Assembly (NCBI GenBank): GCA_965219695.1
Contig: CBDCOJ010000031.1
Location: 414,561-478,560 of the forward strand
Direction: 5' to 3'
Source of the DNA: Candidatus Poribacteria bacterium
Lineage (GTDB): Bacteria; Poribacteria; WGA-4E; WGA-3G
DNA length: 64,000 nt
Each line of letters begins with the position of its first letter. Positions within the stretch are counted from its first letter, which is position 1. Position numbers and translations under genes: made by a program. The notes under the pieces were generated by a model. It was not told the DNA's origin. It did no database searches and worked only from the letters and a program-made list of their open reading frames with translations. Shown here one piece after another: positions 8,834 to 54,686 of this stretch.

Positions 8834-8957
8834 GTAGGAGCGATCTCCGAATCGCGACCTGTCGGGAATCCAAATCAAGAAATCAACGGTATGAATGACG
8901 TTTAGTCATTCACCGGGTATGAATGCCTTTTGGCATTCCCCGGAGATCCCTCCTACA
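8834..8957. repeat. Composite palindromic repeat (family A arm plus family B 'AATCAACGGTATGAATG...CATTC' palindromes)
   Basis: GTAGGAGCGATCTCCGAATCGCGAC, then AATCAACGGTATGAATGACGTTTAGTCATTC and GGTATGAATGCCTTTTGGCATTCC, then a terminal ...CCTCCTAC. Confidence 0.75.
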
Positions 8958-45600: not shown

Positions 45601-48600
45601 CCAAATTCCAAGATGGGATCATAGAGGCATATCAGAACACAGGAAAATCTGAGGAGGCAATAACACTCGCACTGAAATATATTCAGGACGAACCTGGAAA
45701 CGGTCTTCATCACGCTCGTCTCGCGCATCTTTACTACAGCAAGGGTCAACGTAAAGAAGCAATTGCATCCTACAAAAAAGCAATTGAACTCTCACCAGGA
45801 AATGCCGATATTTATGAGAAATTGGCGGTTCTCTATTTGCGTAGTAATCAGCTGGATGATGCAGAGAAAGCATTCAAAGAAGCACTTCAGTATGCTGCGC
45901 AGACACACCAACATCAGAATATCCAACGACAATTGATAGAAATCTATCGTCGTCAAGGTAAACTTGAAGAATACTTAAAAGAAGTGGAAAATCAAGGGGC
46001 ACTTTCCTTTGATATGCTGAAGGAACTTGCACGCAACTATCAGAATCAGGGTAAATTAGATGAAGCCGCTAAGACATATACAAAAGCACTTCAGGTTGCC
46101 CCTCATGAATATGAGGAGCGTAATATTGAACGCCAAATTATAACTATTTATCGAAAGCAAGGTAAATTAGAAGAAAAGTTAAAAGAAGCGGAAAAGAATG
46201 ACACGCTTACTTTTACTATGCAAGTGGAACTTGCTCGGCAATATCGTTCTAAAGGAGAATCGGATAAAGCGATTATTGCCTACAAGAATGCTATCAACAT
46301 GTCATCCAGAGACTATGGAGTAAATAACGTCTATAGCGAATTAATGCAGGAGTACGTCCGACGTGGTGAAGATGATTTAGCAATTGAACTTCACGATTCT
46401 ATATCTCAGCCAAATTCACTCACTACCTCTATCAGACATAACCAATCTGGTTTCGTTGTCACCTTCGGTGGAGATGAAGCACGTAAAATCTTGATTGATG
46501 CCTACAAAAACAAAGGGAAATTGGACCAGCTGCAAGCAATTTTTGATTCTAAACTCGAAAAGGAACCTACAAACCCGATACTTCTTGAGGTAGTAGCCGA
46601 GATTTATCGAAATGCAAAAAACCATGAGAAAAGTGCTGAGGCATACCAAGCACTTTGCAAAGCGGATCCGAGCAATGTTCGCAGTTTTTATTATGCTGCC
46701 GCCGCTCTGAATAAAACTGGAAATTCAGAACTCGCTGAAAAGCTATTAAAACAAGGTGCCACTGCCCTTGAATCCAGCAACCGTCCTAACGAAATGTGGT
46801 ATCTCTGTGCTCTCGGTTCTATCTGTTATGATGCTAAAATGTATACACCTGCGATCAAACTCTTTAAAGGCGCTATTGCTGCCAACACGATGCACAGACA
46901 CGGTGGGCATAGATGGGAAGAGGAGATATTATATGACCTCATCGGAAAAAGTGCACTTGCTACAAAACAGTATGAAGAAGCCATTGATGCATATCAGCAG
47001 TTGAAAAAAATCGCACGTGATAACAGAAAAAAACAAGCTGCCGAAAAAGCGATTGCACAAGCATATATAGATGGAAACCTTCATGCCAAAAAGATTCCTG
47101 AACAGATTAAGAATGTTGAAGACAATCCTAATGATGTAGATGCCCGTCTCGCGCTCGCAGAAACTTATGAATCAAGCGATAAGGTTGAAGAAGCTATTGT
47201 GCAATACCAAAAGATTAGCGAACTTCAACCTGACAAAGCGCAATGGCACAAAAAAATCGGAGATCTCTATCAAAAGCCACGCGAGGCAAAGGATGGTGTT
47301 CAGAAGAATAAAGCGGTGGAGTTAGATGGGAATTATAGTTTTGTTGAAGTCGGTAAAAGCGACACACTAAACACCATAAATCAACATCTTACTGTGTCTG
47401 CCTGGATTAAACCGACTGAATTTCGAAACAGATATACGCCTATAATTTTTAAAGGTGACAGACGAAGTCCAAACATCAGTAATCGGAGTTTCACATTGTG
47501 GCTTCGGGATGATGGGGTTATTCAATTTGCTTCATCGCCTAAGGGACTCGGCGAACGCAAAATTTTTTCCCCACGCGGATCAATTATGCTCAATACATGG
47601 TATCACTTAGCTGGCGTCATTGATACCCAAAGAAATTACATAAAACTTTACATTGACGGTATTGAAGTTGGTCAACAAGATTATAGTGGTGTACCAAATA
47701 TTTATGAAAGTATACTTCCTTTCCGAATTGGTGGTTCACACGAGGAAGAAGTGACCACCCACGCAACCTTTGTTGGACAAATTGACAACGTAAGTGTTTG
47801 GAATATCGCACTGACACCAGAGCAAATTCGTTCTAATATGAAAAAGAAACTGACAGGTAACGAACCTGGCTTAGTAGGACACTGGAATTTTGACAGAAAG
47901 TCGGAAGTATCTATTCCAGATGCATCACCAAATAAGAACGATGGAAAATTAATCGGCAATGCTAAACTAATCGAGTATAATTTTCCTGTTTTTGCCGATG
48001 CCAGCGCGGAACAATTGAAAAAAGCAGCAGCAGCTTACGAAAAAGCTATCTCGTTTGAACCTGACTCGTATGAACTCTATAACTTGGTCGCAAAAATTCA
48101 TACGAAACAAGATGATCCATCCAAAGCCGAAGCCGTATACCGTCAAGCGTTGCAAGCATCTCTCAGACCAACAGAACATGATTCTGCTGTCAAAGCCATC
48201 TTGGAACTTTACGAAGGTAAAGAACATGCTGATAAGCGACTTACTATTCTTGAAGAACTTGGATCAAAATCAGGAAATAGTCCATTTCTACATAAAATGT
48301 TAGGCGATACCTATGTTGAATCGGGTGATACGGATAAGGCAGCATCTGCATATAGAAAATGGTTGGAAATACTTAAAAATGAGCCTAATCAGGGAAAATA
48401 CGCACAAGAATATTTCCAACTTGCTGAGCGGCTTCTTAATCAGAATATCATGCCAGATATTGCGTTGGAACTTGCCAAACAAGCAGCTGGAACCCGATCA
48501 GATTCAACCTACTTTTCTACCTTAGGGCATGCTTATCTGGTTAATGAACAGTATGGCAAAGCATTAGAAAATTTTCAGTCCAGTCTTCAACTTATGAATC

Positions 48601-49331
48601 GTAACGGAAAAGTTAGCGGAGATAGAATAGAACATTTACTAACGCGTATCTCTCAAGTAGGTAAGAATGTAAAAGACAAAGCACTGTACATTGAGATGAT
48701 AGGTAATTTGGTCGATGCAATACCTGACCATCCAGACAACCCGTTAAACGCTAATCTATCATTAGCCGAATTCTGCCATCAACTTGGAATGACAGAAATG
48801 GCAAAAACCTATATTCTGAAAACTGGCTTTTTCCCTGAAACTGCATGGTTGACACTTGGTCCATTTGACAATACGAAGGGAGTCGGCTACAATACCGCTT
48901 ATATTCAGGAAGAAAAAACTCAGATTGATACTGAAGCAAAATACGATGGGGTTACTGGACAAGTTAGTTGGAAACAAGGCACTGATGAAACCTATAACGG
49001 GTTCTTCGATTTTGGTGACGAAGAAAAAATGTACACCGCGTATGCGTGGATAATTTTCACCTCTCCTGAAGAACGAAAAGCACAAATCCGATTCGATAGT
49101 GACGACCAAGGGAAAGTGTGGTTGAACGGCAATAAAGTGTATGCACACAGAAGAACTCGTGGTGCTGTAGTTGACCGCAGAACTATCCCAGTGACACTTA
49201 CTGCTGGACGAAACACTATCCTCGTTAAAGTCTGTAATGAATCACTTCCTTGGGGATTTTATCTGCGGATTACTGATACTGAAGGTAAACCCTTTGATGA
49301 TTTAAAAATCACCGACCAAACACAAAACTAA
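39630..49331 (+). CDS. Giant secreted TPR-repeat protein (paralog P2), colinear with P1 plus an inserted LamG domain
   Basis: Alignable with P1 along its whole length; for example 'KKDDPYRRCLSLREIGKIHEDTG' is identical in both. A LamG domain (about 47290..47960; '...LTVSAWIKPTEFRNRY...WYHLAGVID...FVGQIDNVSVWNIAL') is inserted between the 'IGDLYQK' and 'AAYEKAI' positions that are adjacent in P1. It has the same C-terminal domain. Confidence 0.8.
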   Translation: MFGREKYAIALCVLSLLFSTLLLSPIILAQDGINDAQIIERYKLMLNQKPKEGSTFDRLYQFYLEGDGLESMVTDYQAEAQAKPNDPNIQLILGHIYKRLGKDKDALTAYQRAVELAPDNYYTYFALGQLHVTLRQHEDAIRELTKSVTLSEQSQAVSPEELTAIYKALGQAYFSRDKLDDAIQAWEKISELDPQNVFARIELADLFREKELYPQAIEQHQAIIETKKDDPYRRCLSLREIGKIHEDTGEYDKAREHYDKALDLTAPGNWLRKDLQHRIIAIYSTDANWKDLITYYQGKLETDPNDVELLGLLAAAYIEDQQFDEGTDTYRKGLELAPTDTSLRLSLIAALRNAEKFEAAATEYEALSEQQPDDFGIYRELGKLYLQLEDEDKAKTIYQKMIDRDPQNASTHLTLAEIYTGHEWIEEAVAAYQKAISLAPQNLDYIEYFGEFYFRQANREKAIETWNQMVADGKNTPENYDRLARLLEAKKFPTEAIDASKKAVELMPDAYRFREALAKRLMNDKQYDDALLEYTEAIKLAPNEFFAEQMDDQRIELYRKQGTLVEKVEDAEAQFEKPGLSDTDKFTQLKRLAKMYLKLSNTTYALEILLKAKALQPNDIDVNRETANLYTKQGRRDEAIVIYKHLTEIDSTNAREYHANIAKAYLKGMDFEAAIDAAKQVIAHSPRNPEGHQLLAEIAKQSTKYEEAIDSYKQAIRLRPEAIDIRIELAALYNRSGNSRQAIAQYWRCWELSDNISDKLSFIKPLSEAYYDLGRRGELEEKLKQMAKSNTSGVGAVLGLAQVYRLEGDLSSARFQLARALDRQRENAELLSELVDISSDLGDMQEALTYQQRLVKANPDPVHQQKLGELLFDAGREQEAIQAWSKVLHAKNQTLEAEVKLAKLLIRYGLLEEALFALDNAAEKISGKDAHLALYQIGAKLVEINEAERAIPHFQRILAMPEPATDSTTTVTSNNTTTNVPTSYYGPPGLSKNKLTLASNILNRIQRQPYVYTSRQAWIPKSFEDAQVGALIQLKIIMEEEDKIDEFVAQFEKNADENPKDVQTLEQLAQLYVLTGKRDRSEQITERLIAVSPNNPAYQGMQLNLLQTQQKLNYDTLMKQLEQMTWLTPEDRQWYMADFARRFSYQEQREDAEKLLDDLEKIKVINPNVFTMLVSTFVQLGRTDTAEKFIEQFSATTPQLSQQHVRIYQTLATTYLRNGKDDKAATIYWQYLERTKPSVTNPRRTMALSTSTAYSYGGYSQIQANFPAPTTYYTQDRLQSLQQIFNQFWINDQHQALYNVLQTQIDAAEGRDRIYPALAMCYCYWWENKRETALQILSGLQQEFDDDLTLKLNTVLVSIQAGEHKAALELLQNLADADPRNRRQYFDLTLQVAVHVGDTLIVRDLITKVLNSPISVRELFNFSQKLQQNGLTQYAIAVAKKTATLAMRERDANFLVQLSQHLAQLGRGQDAARIAARAIQFANQQDRFGRTLQSYYLQQASRLASRSTSVSGGNRAEKLIEAAEKNPNSFQAQLRLASYYEGRNQIHKASAAYDAALALRPKDNSTRMRYAQMLQRNRQAKNAVKQYSILMKDKKNFQTIFYNYWEIVRTFTDAREIDKLVAIAKEAIGEGNQYSMGNEFAMRAAQECVRNKYPKAAAEIYEKIMESGRRNVYSQLADAYTAAGQREKAIQLLREKLKSEKAESKVNILLKFAKFDETQDEIKTFVTEYDEAITDEKVDPATLYLAAVTKIVTNDLEGSDPIVNRLLEQIPSQSRLQWLSSLANTYREKLDLNREIRILEAATQKVDPQNSWQLSDVYMKLGTAYSKKDEKEKAQNAIRKMGTLRLMRRGAPQYYEKENVAQTYIKHELWDEAEILLTEVINDLSAQQYYKERAQEQLVTIQQRRDGVTDNQQSNRRTGRVNIGVQRSMAQQLMRRNQIPEAIKVYEQIAKAMPEDLESRSQLANLYSRQNQHVKALEIWKALLEADPENTKFQDGIIEAYQNTGKSEEAITLALKYIQDEPGNGLHHARLAHLYYSKGQRKEAIASYKKAIELSPGNADIYEKLAVLYLRSNQLDDAEKAFKEALQYAAQTHQHQNIQRQLIEIYRRQGKLEEYLKEVENQGALSFDMLKELARNYQNQGKLDEAAKTYTKALQVAPHEYEERNIERQIITIYRKQGKLEEKLKEAEKNDTLTFTMQVELARQYRSKGESDKAIIAYKNAINMSSRDYGVNNVYSELMQEYVRRGEDDLAIELHDSISQPNSLTTSIRHNQSGFVVTFGGDEARKILIDAYKNKGKLDQLQAIFDSKLEKEPTNPILLEVVAEIYRNAKNHEKSAEAYQALCKADPSNVRSFYYAAAALNKTGNSELAEKLLKQGATALESSNRPNEMWYLCALGSICYDAKMYTPAIKLFKGAIAANTMHRHGGHRWEEEILYDLIGKSALATKQYEEAIDAYQQLKKIARDNRKKQAAEKAIAQAYIDGNLHAKKIPEQIKNVEDNPNDVDARLALAETYESSDKVEEAIVQYQKISELQPDKAQWHKKIGDLYQKPREAKDGVQKNKAVELDGNYSFVEVGKSDTLNTINQHLTVSAWIKPTEFRNRYTPIIFKGDRRSPNISNRSFTLWLRDDGVIQFASSPKGLGERKIFSPRGSIMLNTWYHLAGVIDTQRNYIKLYIDGIEVGQQDYSGVPNIYESILPFRIGGSHEEEVTTHATFVGQIDNVSVWNIALTPEQIRSNMKKKLTGNEPGLVGHWNFDRKSEVSIPDASPNKNDGKLIGNAKLIEYNFPVFADASAEQLKKAAAAYEKAISFEPDSYELYNLVAKIHTKQDDPSKAEAVYRQALQASLRPTEHDSAVKAILELYEGKEHADKRLTILEELGSKSGNSPFLHKMLGDTYVESGDTDKAASAYRKWLEILKNEPNQGKYAQEYFQLAERLLNQNIMPDIALELAKQAAGTRSDSTYFSTLGHAYLVNEQYGKALENFQSSLQLMNRNGKVSGDRIEHLLTRISQVGKNVKDKALYIEMIGNLVDAIPDHPDNPLNANLSLAEFCHQLGMTEMAKTYILKTGFFPETAWLTLGPFDNTKGVGYNTAYIQEEKTQIDTEAKYDGVTGQVSWKQGTDETYNGFFDFGDEEKMYTAYAWIIFTSPEERKAQIRFDSDDQGKVWLNGNKVYAHRRTRGAVVDRRTIPVTLTAGRNTILVKVCNESLPWGFYLRITDTEGKPFDDLKITDQTQN

Positions 49332-49445
49332 CTACGACAGACTCCTCTGCTTATTTGCAGATTTCCATCGGTTATAGCACAATTCATTGAACGTACTTTA
49401 GCGATTTAGTGGAATATCTATTCTAAAATTATAGGTATCAGCAAT

Positions 49446-49552
49446 AGTCGGGAATCGGAGTTCCCTCGGACAAAGACGGACCATCTTCTGTAGGCGGTGA
49501 ATGCCTAAATGGCATTCATACCGTTGATTTCGATCTCCGAATCGCGACCTAT
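49446..49552. repeat. Family A/B composite palindromic repeat
   Basis: GTCGGGAATCGGAGTTCCCTC...GGTGAATGCCTAAATGGCATTCATACCGTTGATT...GATCTCCGAATCGCGAC. Confidence 0.75.
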
Positions 49553-49721: not shown

Positions 49722-51856
49722 ATGTACACGCAACGGAATTTCTTCATAATTGTATGTATCCTACTACTATTCGCCTTTAACTTCAGTTATTCCATCGAAT
49801 TATCAGCACAAGATACCGAGACCGAATTTAATGAATCTATTGAGGATACTGCACTGGATTTAGATGGCAACTTTAGTTATGTTGAAACCGTTGACAGCGA
49901 TGTGTTGAATACACTTAGCGAACAGGTTATGTATCTGTATGGATAAAAGCGACTGATTTCCCCAACAGATATGCTCCTATCGTCTACAAAGGTGACCCAC
50001 GCACCCCTGATATTAGTAATCGAAGTTATGCCATGTTTTTACGGGATGACGGCGCTATTCAATTCGCGTCATCACCAAGGGGATTGGAAGAACAATATAT
50101 CTTTTCACCATCTGAGGCAATTACACTTAACAAATGGCATCACGTCGCAGGTGTCGTTGATACACAAAGAGATTTTATCAAAGTCTTCATCGACGGTTTT
50201 GAAGTTGGTAGGACAAATTTTAGAGGACAGCAGCGTTTTTATGAAAGTTTACTTCCATTACGAATTGGGAATTCACATGAAGATGACAGAGAAACTCACT
50301 CCTCCTTTGTCGGTCAAATTGATGAGGTCAGTATCTGGAACATTGCTTTGACTGAAAATCAGATCCGAACTTGTATGAAAAAGCAGTTGGTCGGAGATGA
50401 AAAAGGCTTAGTGGGTTATTGGAAATTTGATGAACAAACAGATGGTATCGTCTCTGATATCTCATCAAATCAGAACGATGCTTTCTTAATCGGTGGCGTA
50501 AAACTTACCAGATACATTCGTCCTTTCTCAGCCTTTGTCGGCCCAGGACAACTGCAGGAAGCTGCTACCGCTTATGAAAAGGCTCTCACTCGTGATACGA
50601 ATTCTTATGAAGTATACCGTTCACTGGCAGAAATATACATCAGAACAGGACGTCTATCCGATGCCGAAAAGATCTATCTTCGTGCTTTAGAGGCTGATCT
50701 CACTCAATCCGAACATGATGATGCGATTCAAGTCCTCCATAAGTTTTCCGTTGTGAACGGCACAAAAGAGGAGTTTATCAATCTACTTGAAAAACTGAGA
50801 CCGAAAATGGAAGGAAGTGCTATTCTACATCAACTGTTAGGGGATGCTTATAAAAACGCTGGTGAGGAAGAGAAAGCTAAAATCGCCTATTCCCAATGGC
50901 TAAAGATCATAAAAAAAGAAGTTGACAGGAAAAATGATGCATCGACATATTACGATCTTGCTGTAGAACTTCTTGAGAAAAACATGTTTCCTGAAATGGC
51001 TTTGGAATTCGCGTTTAAAGCAACAGAAACACCATCAAGTCCAGATTACATCATTACACTTGTACAAGCATTTCTCGTGAATGAACAGTATGAAAACGCA
51101 TATCAAATCATTGAGAGCATTTTTGATATGATGTTTTTACCTTATGTTGAGCGTGATCTGTTATCGCAGGTTGTCAAAACCGGAAAAAATGTAAAAGACA
51201 AAGAAGGTTATGTTGAAATGTTGAATCAACTGATTGACTCTATGTCTGATAATCTTCGCTCACAGCTAAGTACTACACTTGCATTGGCACAATTTTATAG
51301 AGAAAGTGGCCAAGATGAGAAAGCAAATGCGCTTATCCGAAAAACAGGCTTTATTACCGAAGATGCTTGGATGATTCTTGGTCCATTTGATAACGTCGGA
51401 GGGATTGGATTTAATACAGCGTACATCCCAGAAAACCTACCTAAGATTGACCTCACCGCAAAATACGATGGGATAAATGGAAAGGTGAGTTGGCAAAAAA
51501 GCACAGATGATAATCTATATGGCCATATACAACTTGGCGAAAAAGGCGTAGATTGGCAGGCAGCGTATGCGTTTGCAACTGTCCACTCACCAGATGAACG
51601 GCAAGTAGAATTCCGATTTGACTCCGACGACCAAGGGAAAATCTGGTTAAACGGTATTGAGGTTTTTTCACATACGAAAACCTTTACTGCTGAAATTGAC
51701 AATTACATTATTCCTGTAACCCTCCAACCGGGTAACAACAGTATTCTTGTAAAAGTTTGTGAAGAAACAGGTGGTTGGGGATTTTATCTGCGGATTACTG
51801 ATACTGAAGGCAAACCGTTTGATGATTTAAAAATCACTGACCAAACACAAAACTAA
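49722..51856 (+). CDS. Secreted LamG plus helical module plus conserved C-terminal domain protein (paralog P3); apparent 1-nt frameshift near 49925
   Basis: Signal peptide ('FFIIVCILLLFAFNFSYS'). The LamG start ('ALDLDGNFSYVETVDSDVLNTLSEQ') continues in the +2 frame ('YVSVWIKATDFPNRYAPIVYKGDPRTPDISNRSYAMFLRDDGAIQF'), which joins the 50033..51856 ORF. The listed ORF 49971..50351 is a wrong-frame artifact. Confidence 0.6.
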
Positions 51857-52216: not shown

Positions 52217-54386
52217 ATGTCCATGCAACGAAACTTCCCTATATTTGTATGCGTCCTATTGGTATTCATGTTTAACTTCAGTTATTCTACCTATATCTTC
52301 GCACAAGATTCCGTGAATGAAAAGAAGACTGCCCAGAGTAATAAGGTTAATTCTACCGGATATGATGAGAGAATTGTAGATACTGCGCTTGATCTTGACG
52401 GAAAATCAAGTTACGTAGAAATCGGAGACAGTGAAACTTTAAACAATATTACGGAACAGTTGACGGTGTCAGTGTGGATAAGACCAACAAGTAATCCAAA
52501 TAGATACACAGCGATTTTATCAAAGACCGACGCATGGGTTGACCGTATCACGCATCGAAGTTTCATAATGAATTATAAGGAAGGTGGTTCAATTCAATTT
52601 GCAGCGTCTCCTGTCGGTGAAGGTGAAGCGTCTCTTTATTCCCCAAATGGTATCATCAAACACAACATCTGGACACATATAGCAGGCGTTATTGATGCAG
52701 AAAAGAATTACATGAAACTTTTTGTTAATGGAATTGAAGTCAGCAATAGAGATTTTAAATGGAAAGAAAGTATCTATAGAAGTCAGCTCCCGCTGCGTAT
52801 TGGGTGGTCACATGAGAATAGGACCGCTCAATCTTCATTTGTCGGGCAAATTGACGATGTGCGTATCTGGAACATTGCACGCACTAATGCAGATATCCGA
52901 TCTGATATGATTACTCCACTTAACGGGGATGAACCCGGCTTAGTTGGATATTGGAAATTTAATAAAGTAACAGACGGTATTATCTCGGATATGTCCCCAA
53001 ATCGTAACGATGGTCGATTGGCAGGCAATTCAGAACTGACAGAATACATCCGTCCAATTACTGCCTTGACCAGTAAGGAACAACTGGCAAAAGCAGCAAT
53101 TGCTTATGAAGAGGCACTCTCTCAAGGAACAAACTATTATGAAACGTTCCGTTATCTTGCCGAAATTTATATCAAAACAGAACGTATTTTAGATGCAGAA
53201 AAGGTCTATTTACGCGCATTAAAGGTAGACCTCACGCAAAGCGAACAAAACGATGCAATAAGAGACCTCTGGAGACTTTACACCGAGAGAGATGCAGTAG
53301 ATGAATTCCTTACAATACTTGAAGAACTGAAACCAAGAATGCAAGGAAGTTCTGTTCTGCATGAACTATTAGGTGATGCTTACAAAAACGCTGGTCAGAA
53401 AGAAAAAGCTGAAATTGCCTATACACAGTGGCTTAACATCCGAATGAAGGAAGTAAAAATGCAAGCTCGTGCGTCTGAATATCGCATCCTTGCGGAAGAA
53501 CTACTTAAGAAGAATCTTTTTCCTGATACTGCGTTGGAATTGGCGGAAATTGCATTGGAAAGAATATCTGGCTCAAGATATATGATTACCTGTGCCCATG
53601 CCTTACTCGTAAATGAGTTCTACGATGAGGCTTTTCACCAAATTAGCAGTTTTCTCAATGCTGGGTATTATGAATATACTGAACGTAGCATGTTTGAACG
53701 AATTGTTCAGGCAGGAAAAAATGTCAAAGACAAAGACGGATATATTGTGATGTTAAATCAACTTATTGATAATTTGACCTTTGATCTACCTGCACAATTA
53801 AATACTATCATGGCTTTAGCCCAATTCTATACAGTCAATAACCAGCATGAAAAAGCAGAAGCACTTATCCAAAAAAACAGGATTTATCACCGAAGACGCA
53901 TGGACGATTCTTGGTCCGTTTGACAACGTTGATAGAATCGGCTTTAATACTAAATACATTCCGGAAAACTTGCCGCAGATTGATGCCACCGCAAAATACG
54001 ATGGGAAAAATGGACAAGTGAGTTGGGAAAAATGTCAGGATAATTTTATTGACGGTTATATCCGTATCCAACCCACCGTTAATTGGAGTGTTGCATATTC
54101 ATTCGCAACTGTCCATTCTCCAGATGAACGGGAAGCCGAATTCCGTTTTGATTCCGATGACCAAGGTAAAGTCTGGTTAAACGGTATAGAGATGCATGCA
54201 CACACAAGAACCTATGCTACAGATATTGATAGAGATATTATTCCTGTGACTCTCTCTCCAGGAAAAAATAGTATCCTCATCAAGGTGTGTGAAGAGACCA
54301 GAGGTTCGGGATTTTATCTGCGGATTACCGACACAGATGGAAAACCCTTTGATGATTTAGTATTTTCTATCTCAGAGAGAAATTAA
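52217..54386 (+). CDS. Secreted LamG plus helical module plus conserved C-terminal domain protein (paralog P4); frameshift at A7 run 53869..53875
   Basis: The start is moved to ATG 52217, which has a GGAGGT RBS and is homologous to the P3 start. LamG ('LTVSVWIRPTSNPNRY...FVGQIDDVRIWNIA'). After 'HEKAEALIQK' the homologous sequence 'KTGFITEDAWTILGPFDN...' continues in the frame of ORF 53847..54386. Confidence 0.6.
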
Positions 54387-54480: not shown

Positions 54481-54686
54481 GTAGAAGCGAACTCCGGGGA
54501 ATGCCATACGCGCATTCATACCCGCCAAATGCCATACGCGCATTTGGCGTTGATTTGGACAGATGCCAACAGGCATGTGGCGTTGATTTGGGTGAATGAC
54601 TAAACGTCATTCATACCGTTGATTTCTTGATTTGGATTCCCGACCATCATTGTGTTTTGTCGCGATTCGGAGATCGCTCCTACAAG
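54481..54686. repeat. Dense cluster of family B (GAATGCC..GGCATTC / AATCAACGGTATGAATG) and family A palindromic repeats
   Basis: The cluster lies between P4 and the next gene. Confidence 0.7.

Follow-up and report, generated by a model that had tools for sequence, protein, structure and literature searches.

How does one member of a tandem array of giant repeat proteins come to carry a complete domain that its nearest neighbor lacks? This question is raised by a 64,000-nucleotide stretch of contig CBDCOJ010000031.1 from a sponge-associated Candidatus Poribacteria bacterium (the whole of this 64-kb stretch is called the window below), in which four paralogous genes, P1–P4, lie head to tail on the + strand. 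P1 and P2 encode giant, presumably secreted tetratricopeptide repeat (TPR) proteins with a helical tail and a C-terminal β-sandwich, and P2 contains in addition a LamG domain that is missing from P1. Our analysis suggests that the P2 lineage probably gained this domain anciently, as part of a patch transferred by recombination from a paralogue of the type represented by P3, P4, and the giant relative P0130, and that P1 inherited a LamG-less state. The mechanism, domain shuffling, is a known one, and no general principle is changed by it; the protein family is undescribed.

The LamG block that separates P2 from P1

In the list of open reading frames (ORFs), P1 (30654..39515, + strand) is a protein of 2953 aa, with its likely true start at the ATG at 30687, and P2 (39627..49331, + strand) is a protein of 3234 aa, with its likely start at the ATG at 39630. 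Both match many Pfam TPR families above cutoff, and phmmer returns designed consensus TPR proteins from the PDB. Pairwise alignment gives 57% identity over 2907 aligned residues, with large indels at two places, where P2 has an additional 68-aa TPR pair and a block at aa 2554–2795. This block (aa 2554–2794/5, nt 47286..48011, + strand) comprises 242 aa, a 9-aa linker plus a 233-aa LamG cassette, as delineated by the alignment, Pfam, an AlphaFold model, and Foldseek. It faces 4–5 linker residues in P1, which leaves a net difference of 237 aa. The first-pass annotation of this DNA had described a LamG insertion here, and both the alignment and Pfam place the block in P2 and none in P1, with the peptides it quoted at the expected places. 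Its location was right, but its figure of about 220 aa gives way to the net 237 aa, and the end it proposed, 47960, falls ∼50 nt short. In P2, the motif 'WHKKIGDLYQ' (nt 47244–47273) precedes the block, 'AVELDGNYSF' (47313) and 'GHWNFD' (47877) lie within it, and 'LKKAAAAYE' (48015) follows. The reading frame is unbroken across both junctions and continues into the tail (48012..49331, + strand), which consists of a TPR-like helical module (48012–48815) and the C-terminal β-sandwich (48816–49328).

The Pfam family Laminin_G_3 (PF13385; curated gathering cutoff, 27.6 bits) matches P2 at 96 bits (E = 3e-27, aa 2567–2734, nt 47325–47828), P4 at 91 bits, and P3 at 67 bits. P1 has no Laminin_G_3 match in Pfam, where its matches are to TPR families only. 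By tblastn, the window contains exactly three LamG copies and four tails. As had been claimed from the sequence at the outset, P3 and P4 carry the same 233-aa cassette ahead of the same helix as P2, as evidenced by its length and by Pfam. The P2 cassette is 56.5% identical to that of P3 and 51% identical to that of P4, while those of P3 and P4 are 51.5% identical to each other, with lengths of 232–233 aa. At these identities, the P2 domain is clearly related to its two neighbors.

In P1, the corresponding site is empty. The loop 'RSRETHGTE' (38184..38210, + strand) lies between TPR helix A, 'WHKTIGDLYQ' (38154–38183), and helix B, 'RLAKVTAAYEKAIK'. A LamG remnant in P1 was sought by alignment, junction comparison, and tblastn, and none was found; the P1 frame is continuous, and 'SRETHGTE' resembles the linker that precedes LamG in LamG-bearing relatives ('RRETGEVIEGT'), not LamG itself. 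The site thus displays a linker-like loop rather than the degenerate remnant that the first-pass annotation had considered as the mark of simple decay.

An AlphaFold model of P2 aa 2480–3234 (pLDDT 84) places the block in a structural context. The TPR helices end in helix A, 'QWHKKIGDLYQK' (helix 59–70 of the model), followed by a long strand (73–88), a β-sandwich, a second long strand (301–311), helix B, 'AEQLKKAAAAYEKAISF' (315–331), 14 further helices, and the C-terminal β domain; paired helices flank LamG on both sides. Because of this order, LamG appears to be a nested domain that occupies the helix A–helix B turn of a single TPR repeat and could be accommodated without a break in the TPR superhelix. 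Pairing of the two long strands and an uninterrupted TPR stack are likewise suggested by the secondary structure of the model. Foldseek matches the P2 domain to the LamG domain of PAPP-A, PTX3, CRP, and a Bacteroides carbohydrate-binding protein (4dqa) at E ∼1e-9, with target-normalized TM-scores of 0.7–0.78 against the pentraxins. Both the model and these matches identify it as a jelly-roll β-sandwich of the LamG/pentraxin-like kind.

Age and origin of the P2 LamG domain

Comparison loci L001–L003 come from Poribacteria metagenome-assembled genomes, and L003 belongs to a complete chromosome of 5.08 Mb. A P1 orthologue without LamG and a P2 orthologue with it are present in three Poribacteria assemblies besides that of the window, at 87–95% protein identity to the window copies. 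The P1 orthologues of L002 and L003, 93.5% and 87% identical to P1, share its junction and are likewise without LamG; in the same loci, the P2 orthologues are 94.7% and 88.5% identical to P2, and both have LamG. LamG-bearing orthologues of P2 are found in L001, L002, and L003 and as P0001 and P0002. Because P1 and P2 are only 57% identical and the orthologue pairs keep the same states, the sequences indicate that the difference is old and inherited. Domain shuffling within a tandem family, as the locus was initially characterized, therefore holds as far as shuffling is concerned, but the event is old, and the presence of LamG at this exact site varies across the whole family.

The family was sampled by a homologue search with the LamG domain plus tail of P2 and by a cluster-representative search with the tail alone; a homologue search with the P1 tail returned 9 proteins only, with generic TPR word matches dominating. 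The few named homologues are all labeled Candidatus Poribacteria. Neighbor-joining trees were built for the helical module (263 columns, 200 bootstraps), the tail (434 columns), and LamG (198 columns). Separate trees of the LamG and C-terminal modules had been proposed in the first-pass annotation, and they are incongruent. In the helical-module tree, the P2 lineage groups with P0020 (100%), P0125 (98%), the P0031 group (100%), and then P1, all of which lack LamG, and the tree of the helical plus β tail recovers the same P1/P2 clade (100%). In the LamG tree, the P2 lineage is instead sister to the giant P0130 (97%), followed by the P4-like P0030 (83%). The P0130 tail is, in the helical-module tree, sister (97%) to a clade that holds P3, P4, and P0030. 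P0130 and P0030 take matching positions in the LamG and tail trees, and P2 alone is discordant, so that P2 would be the recipient. Between P2 and P0130, identity is 76% for LamG, 40% for the helical module, and 54% for the β domain. Over the 198-aa LamG core, P2 is 76% identical to P0130, 60% to P3, and 51% to P4. The initial suggestion that P2 gained LamG by recombination with a P3/P4-like copy is favored in this broad sense, but these values rule out today's P3 and P4 as donors.

Breakpoints were sought with P0125 as backbone comparator and P0130 as donor comparator, and recombination was judged from the neighbor-joining bootstraps and a maximum chi-square style permutation test. Among informative sites in P2, those at aa 2469–2536 are backbone-like (16/18), those at aa 2539–2557 are donor-like (7/7), those at 2796–2835 are mixed, and those beyond 2835 are again backbone-like; P0125 is 72–75% identical to P2 in the N flank of LamG. 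Together with sliding identities and the tree incongruence, these sites point to a recombinant patch in P2 (aa ∼2538 to 2800–2835, nt 47238..48131, + strand) that spans helix A, linker, LamG, linker, and helix B and is of P0130/P4-like origin in a P0125/P0020-like backbone. The incongruence of the patch with both flanks is well supported, and the runs of informative sites switch on both sides. Since both flanks are of the backbone type, the exchange would have been internal, a double crossover or gene conversion of ∼0.8–0.9 kb.

These observations suggest the following history. P1 would descend from a LamG-less lineage, and the P2 backbone would belong to the same LamG-less clade. By homologous recombination or gene conversion, the P2 lineage would then have received the ∼0.8–0.9 kb patch (helix A, LamG, helix B) from a paralogue of the P0130/P3/P4-type clade. 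The precise look of the indel would be explained by the position of the crossovers, in the two flanking motifs that are most conserved. The patch would have added LamG rather than replaced an existing copy, and its donor may have resided in the same genome as the P2 lineage. P0130-type genes occur on 5.8–6.1 Mb contigs. One gain is more parsimonious than four losses because the four successive LamG-less outgroups share one junction type, and the gene at the position of P2 in a more distant relative (L006) is without LamG, in support of a gain.

P0004 (or P0006) was also tried as the donor, with P0020 as the backbone. A P0004-like segment was detected at aa 2473–2819 (chi-square 45.6, p ≤ 0.005), but a tree of the flank alone was unresolved (25%), and the LamG-less P0125, when added, proved 72–75% identical to P2 there. 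P0004 was dropped in favor of the P0130-type clade because much of that signal was divergence of P0020. The first LamG tree, which did not include P0130, had unresolved deep nodes and did not place the origin of the P2 LamG domain.

A different history is possible, though we find it distinctly less convincing, in which the ancestor of P1 and P2 had LamG, which P1, the P0031 group, P0125/P0287, and P0020 each lost by in-frame deletion or by conversion to a LamG-less allele, and in which the LamG domain of P2 was overwritten by a P0130-like copy. Most members of the family have LamG, the P1 loop looks like a retained pre-LamG linker, other branches contain deletions with linker scars (P0044, P0087/P0089), and tree incongruence alone is blind to addition versus replacement. 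Such a history demands, however, four losses in place of one gain on a well supported backbone. Moreover, the LamG-less members of the clade share the E/RL junction (the slash marks the LamG site) and the ∼10-aa loop, which argues for a single origin, and neither the L006 gene in the position of P2 nor the distant TPR plus β-sandwich relatives have LamG.

Several points weigh against an ancient gain by P2. The patch could have replaced a LamG domain already in P2, with its LamG-less relatives being independent losses or conversions to a LamG-less allele, and losses clearly occur elsewhere, as evidenced by the linker scars kept in P0044, P0087, P0089, P0129, and P0133. All trees are neighbor-joining trees with simple distance correction, the LamG alignment has 198 columns only, and the C-terminal breakpoint is fuzzy (aa 2796–2835). 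An early mosaic signal, a P0004-like N flank at aa 2473–2552, turned out to be largely P0020 divergence once P0125 was added. The N-terminal 2000 aa of the giants are approximately equidistant or mosaic, and since they show no single backbone, the term is defined only from ∼aa 2100 to the end. Any function is entirely inferred. With these points considered, we still favor the ancient gain of LamG by the P2 lineage, and the inherited LamG-less state of P1.

It is very improbable that P2 took its LamG domain straight from its neighbor P3 or P4, or that P1 lost its own recently by unequal crossing-over. Recombination is active in the array today (a 92% identical tract at the 3' ends of P2 and P3), and the P2 cassette is slightly closer to that of P3 (56.5%) than P3 is to P4 (51.5%). 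However, the P2 core is far less similar to P3 (60%) and P4 (51%) than to P0130 (76%), third-codon-position identity between P2 and P3 in LamG is 0.50, equal to background, the P1 and P2 states are fixed in genomes with 87–95% identical orthologues, and L003 has a LamG-bearing P2 but no P3 or P4. We give hardly any credence to an artifact, either a misassembled chimera of paralogues in P2 or a grouping of the P2 and P0130 domains by convergent constraint. The sequences come from metagenome-assembled genomes, the frameshifts of P3 and P4 are possibly assembly errors, and several database relatives are fragmented by long-read errors. Nevertheless, the same P2 architecture is seen in independent assemblies (the window, L001, L002, the complete chromosome L003, P0001, and P0002), the frame is continuous across both junctions, and convergence would not yield 76% identity over 198 residues with 97% bootstrap support. 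Programmed cassette switching (pilE/pilS-like, vlsE-like, or by a diversity-generating retroelement) was considered and rejected, as the LamG copies of the window are only 60–79% identical at the nucleotide level and all lie in full-length genes; there are no high-identity flanking repeats around these copies.

The array, its neighborhood, and the Poribacteria-wide family

P3 (49722..51856, + strand) and P4 (∼52217..54386, + strand) are short members of the array, each with a signal peptide, a LamG cassette (49851–50548 and 52385–53080, respectively), a helical tail, and a β-sandwich. Each is broken by one frameshift, and the corrected proteins have ∼711 and ∼722 aa. The P3 frame is broken near 49929 by a 1-nt deletion, the missing C of GTTACTGTG, which is present in L001 and L002; the site is not a homopolymer. 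In P4 the break is an extra A in the A7 run at 53871–53877, which is A6 in L001. Both orthologues are intact in L001 and L002, and the frameshifts could be real pseudogene lesions or assembly errors.

A 283-nt tract (49212..49494, + strand) takes in the final ∼120 nt of P2 together with ∼165 nt beyond the gene. Its counterpart at the same part of P3, 51737–52019, is 92% identical to it, against a background of ∼65%, and the tract gives P2 and P3 the identical C-terminus 'GFYLRITDTEGKPFDDLKITDQTQN'. In L001 and L002, the corresponding P2 and P3 segments are 74–80% identical, and the downstream sequence is unalignable. Because the tract is absent from these two loci, it is, by sequence, apparently a recent gene conversion specific to the lineage of the window. 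Mosaic patterns are seen in other members as well. P0067 is P0031-like upstream of the LamG site and has a P0076/P0004-like tail, P4 matches P0030 at 76% identity in the helical module but at 62% in LamG, and the giants are approximately equidistant, with local switches, over the first 2000 aa. P2 also contains tandem 68-aa double-TPR units (aa 2079–2146 and 2147–2214, nt 45861–46064 and 46065–46268) with 50% amino acid and 64% nucleotide identity. P1 and P0130 have a single unit at this place; the extra unit of P2 is shared not with P0130 but with the LamG-less giant P0287, which has at least one more.

Between the genes, a 36-nt hairpin element, GGTGAATGNCTAAANGNCATTCATACCGTTGATTTC, occurs at 8879–8914 (− strand), 49496–49531, and 54591–54626, with degenerate copies at 54496–54590. 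Three copies at ≤3 mismatches are present in the window versus 0 expected by chance, and one of them lies within the region of homology that follows P2 and P3 and interrupts it. The element looks like a member of a repetitive extragenic palindrome (REP)-like or miniature repeat family.

Downstream of P4 (54909–60788) lie a 495-aa ORF, a MoxR AAA_3 ATPase, a DUF58 protein, and a BatA-N plus VWA protein, as assigned by Pfam. The 495-aa ORF itself has no Pfam match and is of predicted membrane and coiled-coil character. The order of giant TPR genes followed by MoxR-DUF58-VWA is conserved in L001, L003, and L006 and absent in L002, and this recurrent linkage is suggestive of a connection between the two. 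At L003 (12094–13387), P1 and P2 are present, there is no P3 or P4, and the gap between P2 and the 495-aa ORF is occupied by an unrelated 205-aa ORF; the presence of the short LamG paralogues thus varies among close relatives. At L006 (1–13538), from a more distant Poribacteria genome of 5.06 Mb, a 3132-aa LamG-bearing giant with a P0007/P0012-type tail is followed by a LamG-less giant of the P0031 type, the reverse of the order in the window. The second giant, which adjoins a 493-aa ORF and the MoxR operon as P2 does, is split into six ORFs, probably by long-read errors. Another giant TPR-LamG paralogue, P0004/P0006, occupies a different locus (L004, L005), where it is followed by AAA_15/AAA_21 ATPase genes and a TPP enzyme. 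In L004, a 2.2× long-read contig, a giant of this type is shattered into ∼10 ORFs, from which it follows that many short database entries in the family are fragments of giants split by long-read errors.

Across the family, a signal peptide of ∼30 aa ending in AQ[D/N/E] precedes a TPR array (0 to ∼2500 aa), a TPR-like helical module, and, in most members, the C-terminal β-sandwich, which is missing from one large subgroup. Three architectures contain LamG: signal peptide, LamG, and tail (∼710 aa; P3 and P4); TPR array, LamG, and tail (P2 and giants of 3100–3180 aa, including P0130); and ∼600 aa of TPR, LamG, and the helical module without the β domain (∼1085 aa). In these LamG bearers, the cassette is always 232–236 aa long and always between the same two motifs, 'WHKKxGDLYQK' in helix A and 'QLxxAAAAYEKAI' in helix B. 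A fourth architecture, TPR array plus tail without LamG, is found in P1, P0020, P0031–35, P0125/P0287, P0044, P0067, P0071, P0076, P0087, P0089, P0090, P0120, P0127, P0129, and P0133; LamG-less members number about 14. Some of these retain stubs of both linkers, 'GEVVEGPALA/LLEQ' in P0044 and 'RETGTVSEKLSLE/QL' in P0087/P0089, which on sequence grounds are evidently plain deletion scars. Other LamG-less proteins, including P1, have a ∼10-aa loop and then 'RLxKAxAAYEKAI'. The E/RL junction is common to P1, P0020, P0125, the P0031 group, P0067, and P0076, and P2 has the 'QL' that is typical of LamG bearers. The short P3/P4-type proteins may be giants that lost the whole TPR array, since the whole family shares the signal-peptide-like N-terminus; the position of the giant P0130 as sister to the short-protein clade is consistent with this notion.

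A bolder and rather doubtful proposal is that one TPR turn serves as a natural "plug-in" socket, at which, throughout Poribacteria, LamG has been repeatedly lost, reinserted, and exchanged among at least five paralogue lineages through recombination in the two conserved flanking helices. The P2 lineage, possibly the P0004 group, and the mismatch between P4 and P0030 would be examples. If this were so, a symbiont could retune the ligand specificity of giant secreted scaffolds in a combinatorial manner.

Putative function and comparison with known systems

The N-termini of P1–P4 are signal-peptide-like, ∼31 aa long, and end in AQD, with a Cys at position 12. For the C-terminal domain, a sequence search of the PDB gave no match, and a fold search was used instead; by its modeled fold, the domain looks like a sugar-binding β-sandwich, with galactose-binding-domain-like, GH2 N-terminal, and PA14 modules as candidates. 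Most likely, these proteins are periplasmic or surface TPR scaffolds to which LamG would add a second putative glycan- or protein-binding module, such that the P1–P4 family would consist of secreted giant TPR scaffolds with one or two lectin-like β-sandwich modules. P2 offers a well-resolved natural case in which a whole domain appears to have moved between bacterial paralogues by homologous recombination, with crossovers in conserved repeat motifs and the frame intact. The analysis also defines an uncharacterized, Poribacteria-wide family of giant secreted proteins that combine TPR, LamG, and a putative sugar-binding module, often beside a MoxR-DUF58-VWA operon. Its members are candidate participants in interactions of sponge symbionts with the host matrix or at the envelope.

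TPR proteins of this phylum have been noted before. Kamke et al. (2014; PMC3909097) reported that, among the repeat domains encoded by poribacterial genomes, TPR is the most frequent. Signal peptides or transmembrane helices often accompany it, and a role of these proteins in host interaction was postulated in that article. The proteins described here resemble them in phylum and in the combination of TPR with signal peptides. A term search of that article found no mention of laminin or concanavalin-type domains, and we found in it no description of a LamG-bearing family, of ∼3000-aa giants, of the C-terminal β-sandwich, or of a modular LamG site. The downstream genes are reminiscent of Bat (Bacteroides aerotolerance)-type operons, which likewise combine MoxR, DUF58, and BatA-N plus VWA proteins with associated TPR proteins. 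The giant TPR-LamG proteins are, however, far larger than BatB, BatC, and BatE, and the linkage is missing in L002.

Compact domains that are inserted in loops of a host domain leave that host continuous, and such nested domains provide the closest structural likeness, as the secondary structure of the model shows a β-sandwich with apparently adjacent first and last strands in the turn between two helices. Here, by contrast, the insert is polymorphic among paralogues, and its host is one TPR hairpin of a very long solenoid.

Recombination or gene conversion reportedly also figures in the history of the tandem TPR paralogues IFIT1 and IFIT1B of mammals (PMC4887208, an article with 39 mentions of gene conversion). 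Gene conversion among tandem TPR paralogues is the feature common to the two systems. To our knowledge, no whole-domain gain or loss is involved in IFIT1/IFIT1B. Those proteins are eukaryotic and cytosolic, whereas in the poribacterial array a complete LamG domain appears to travel with the converted patch.

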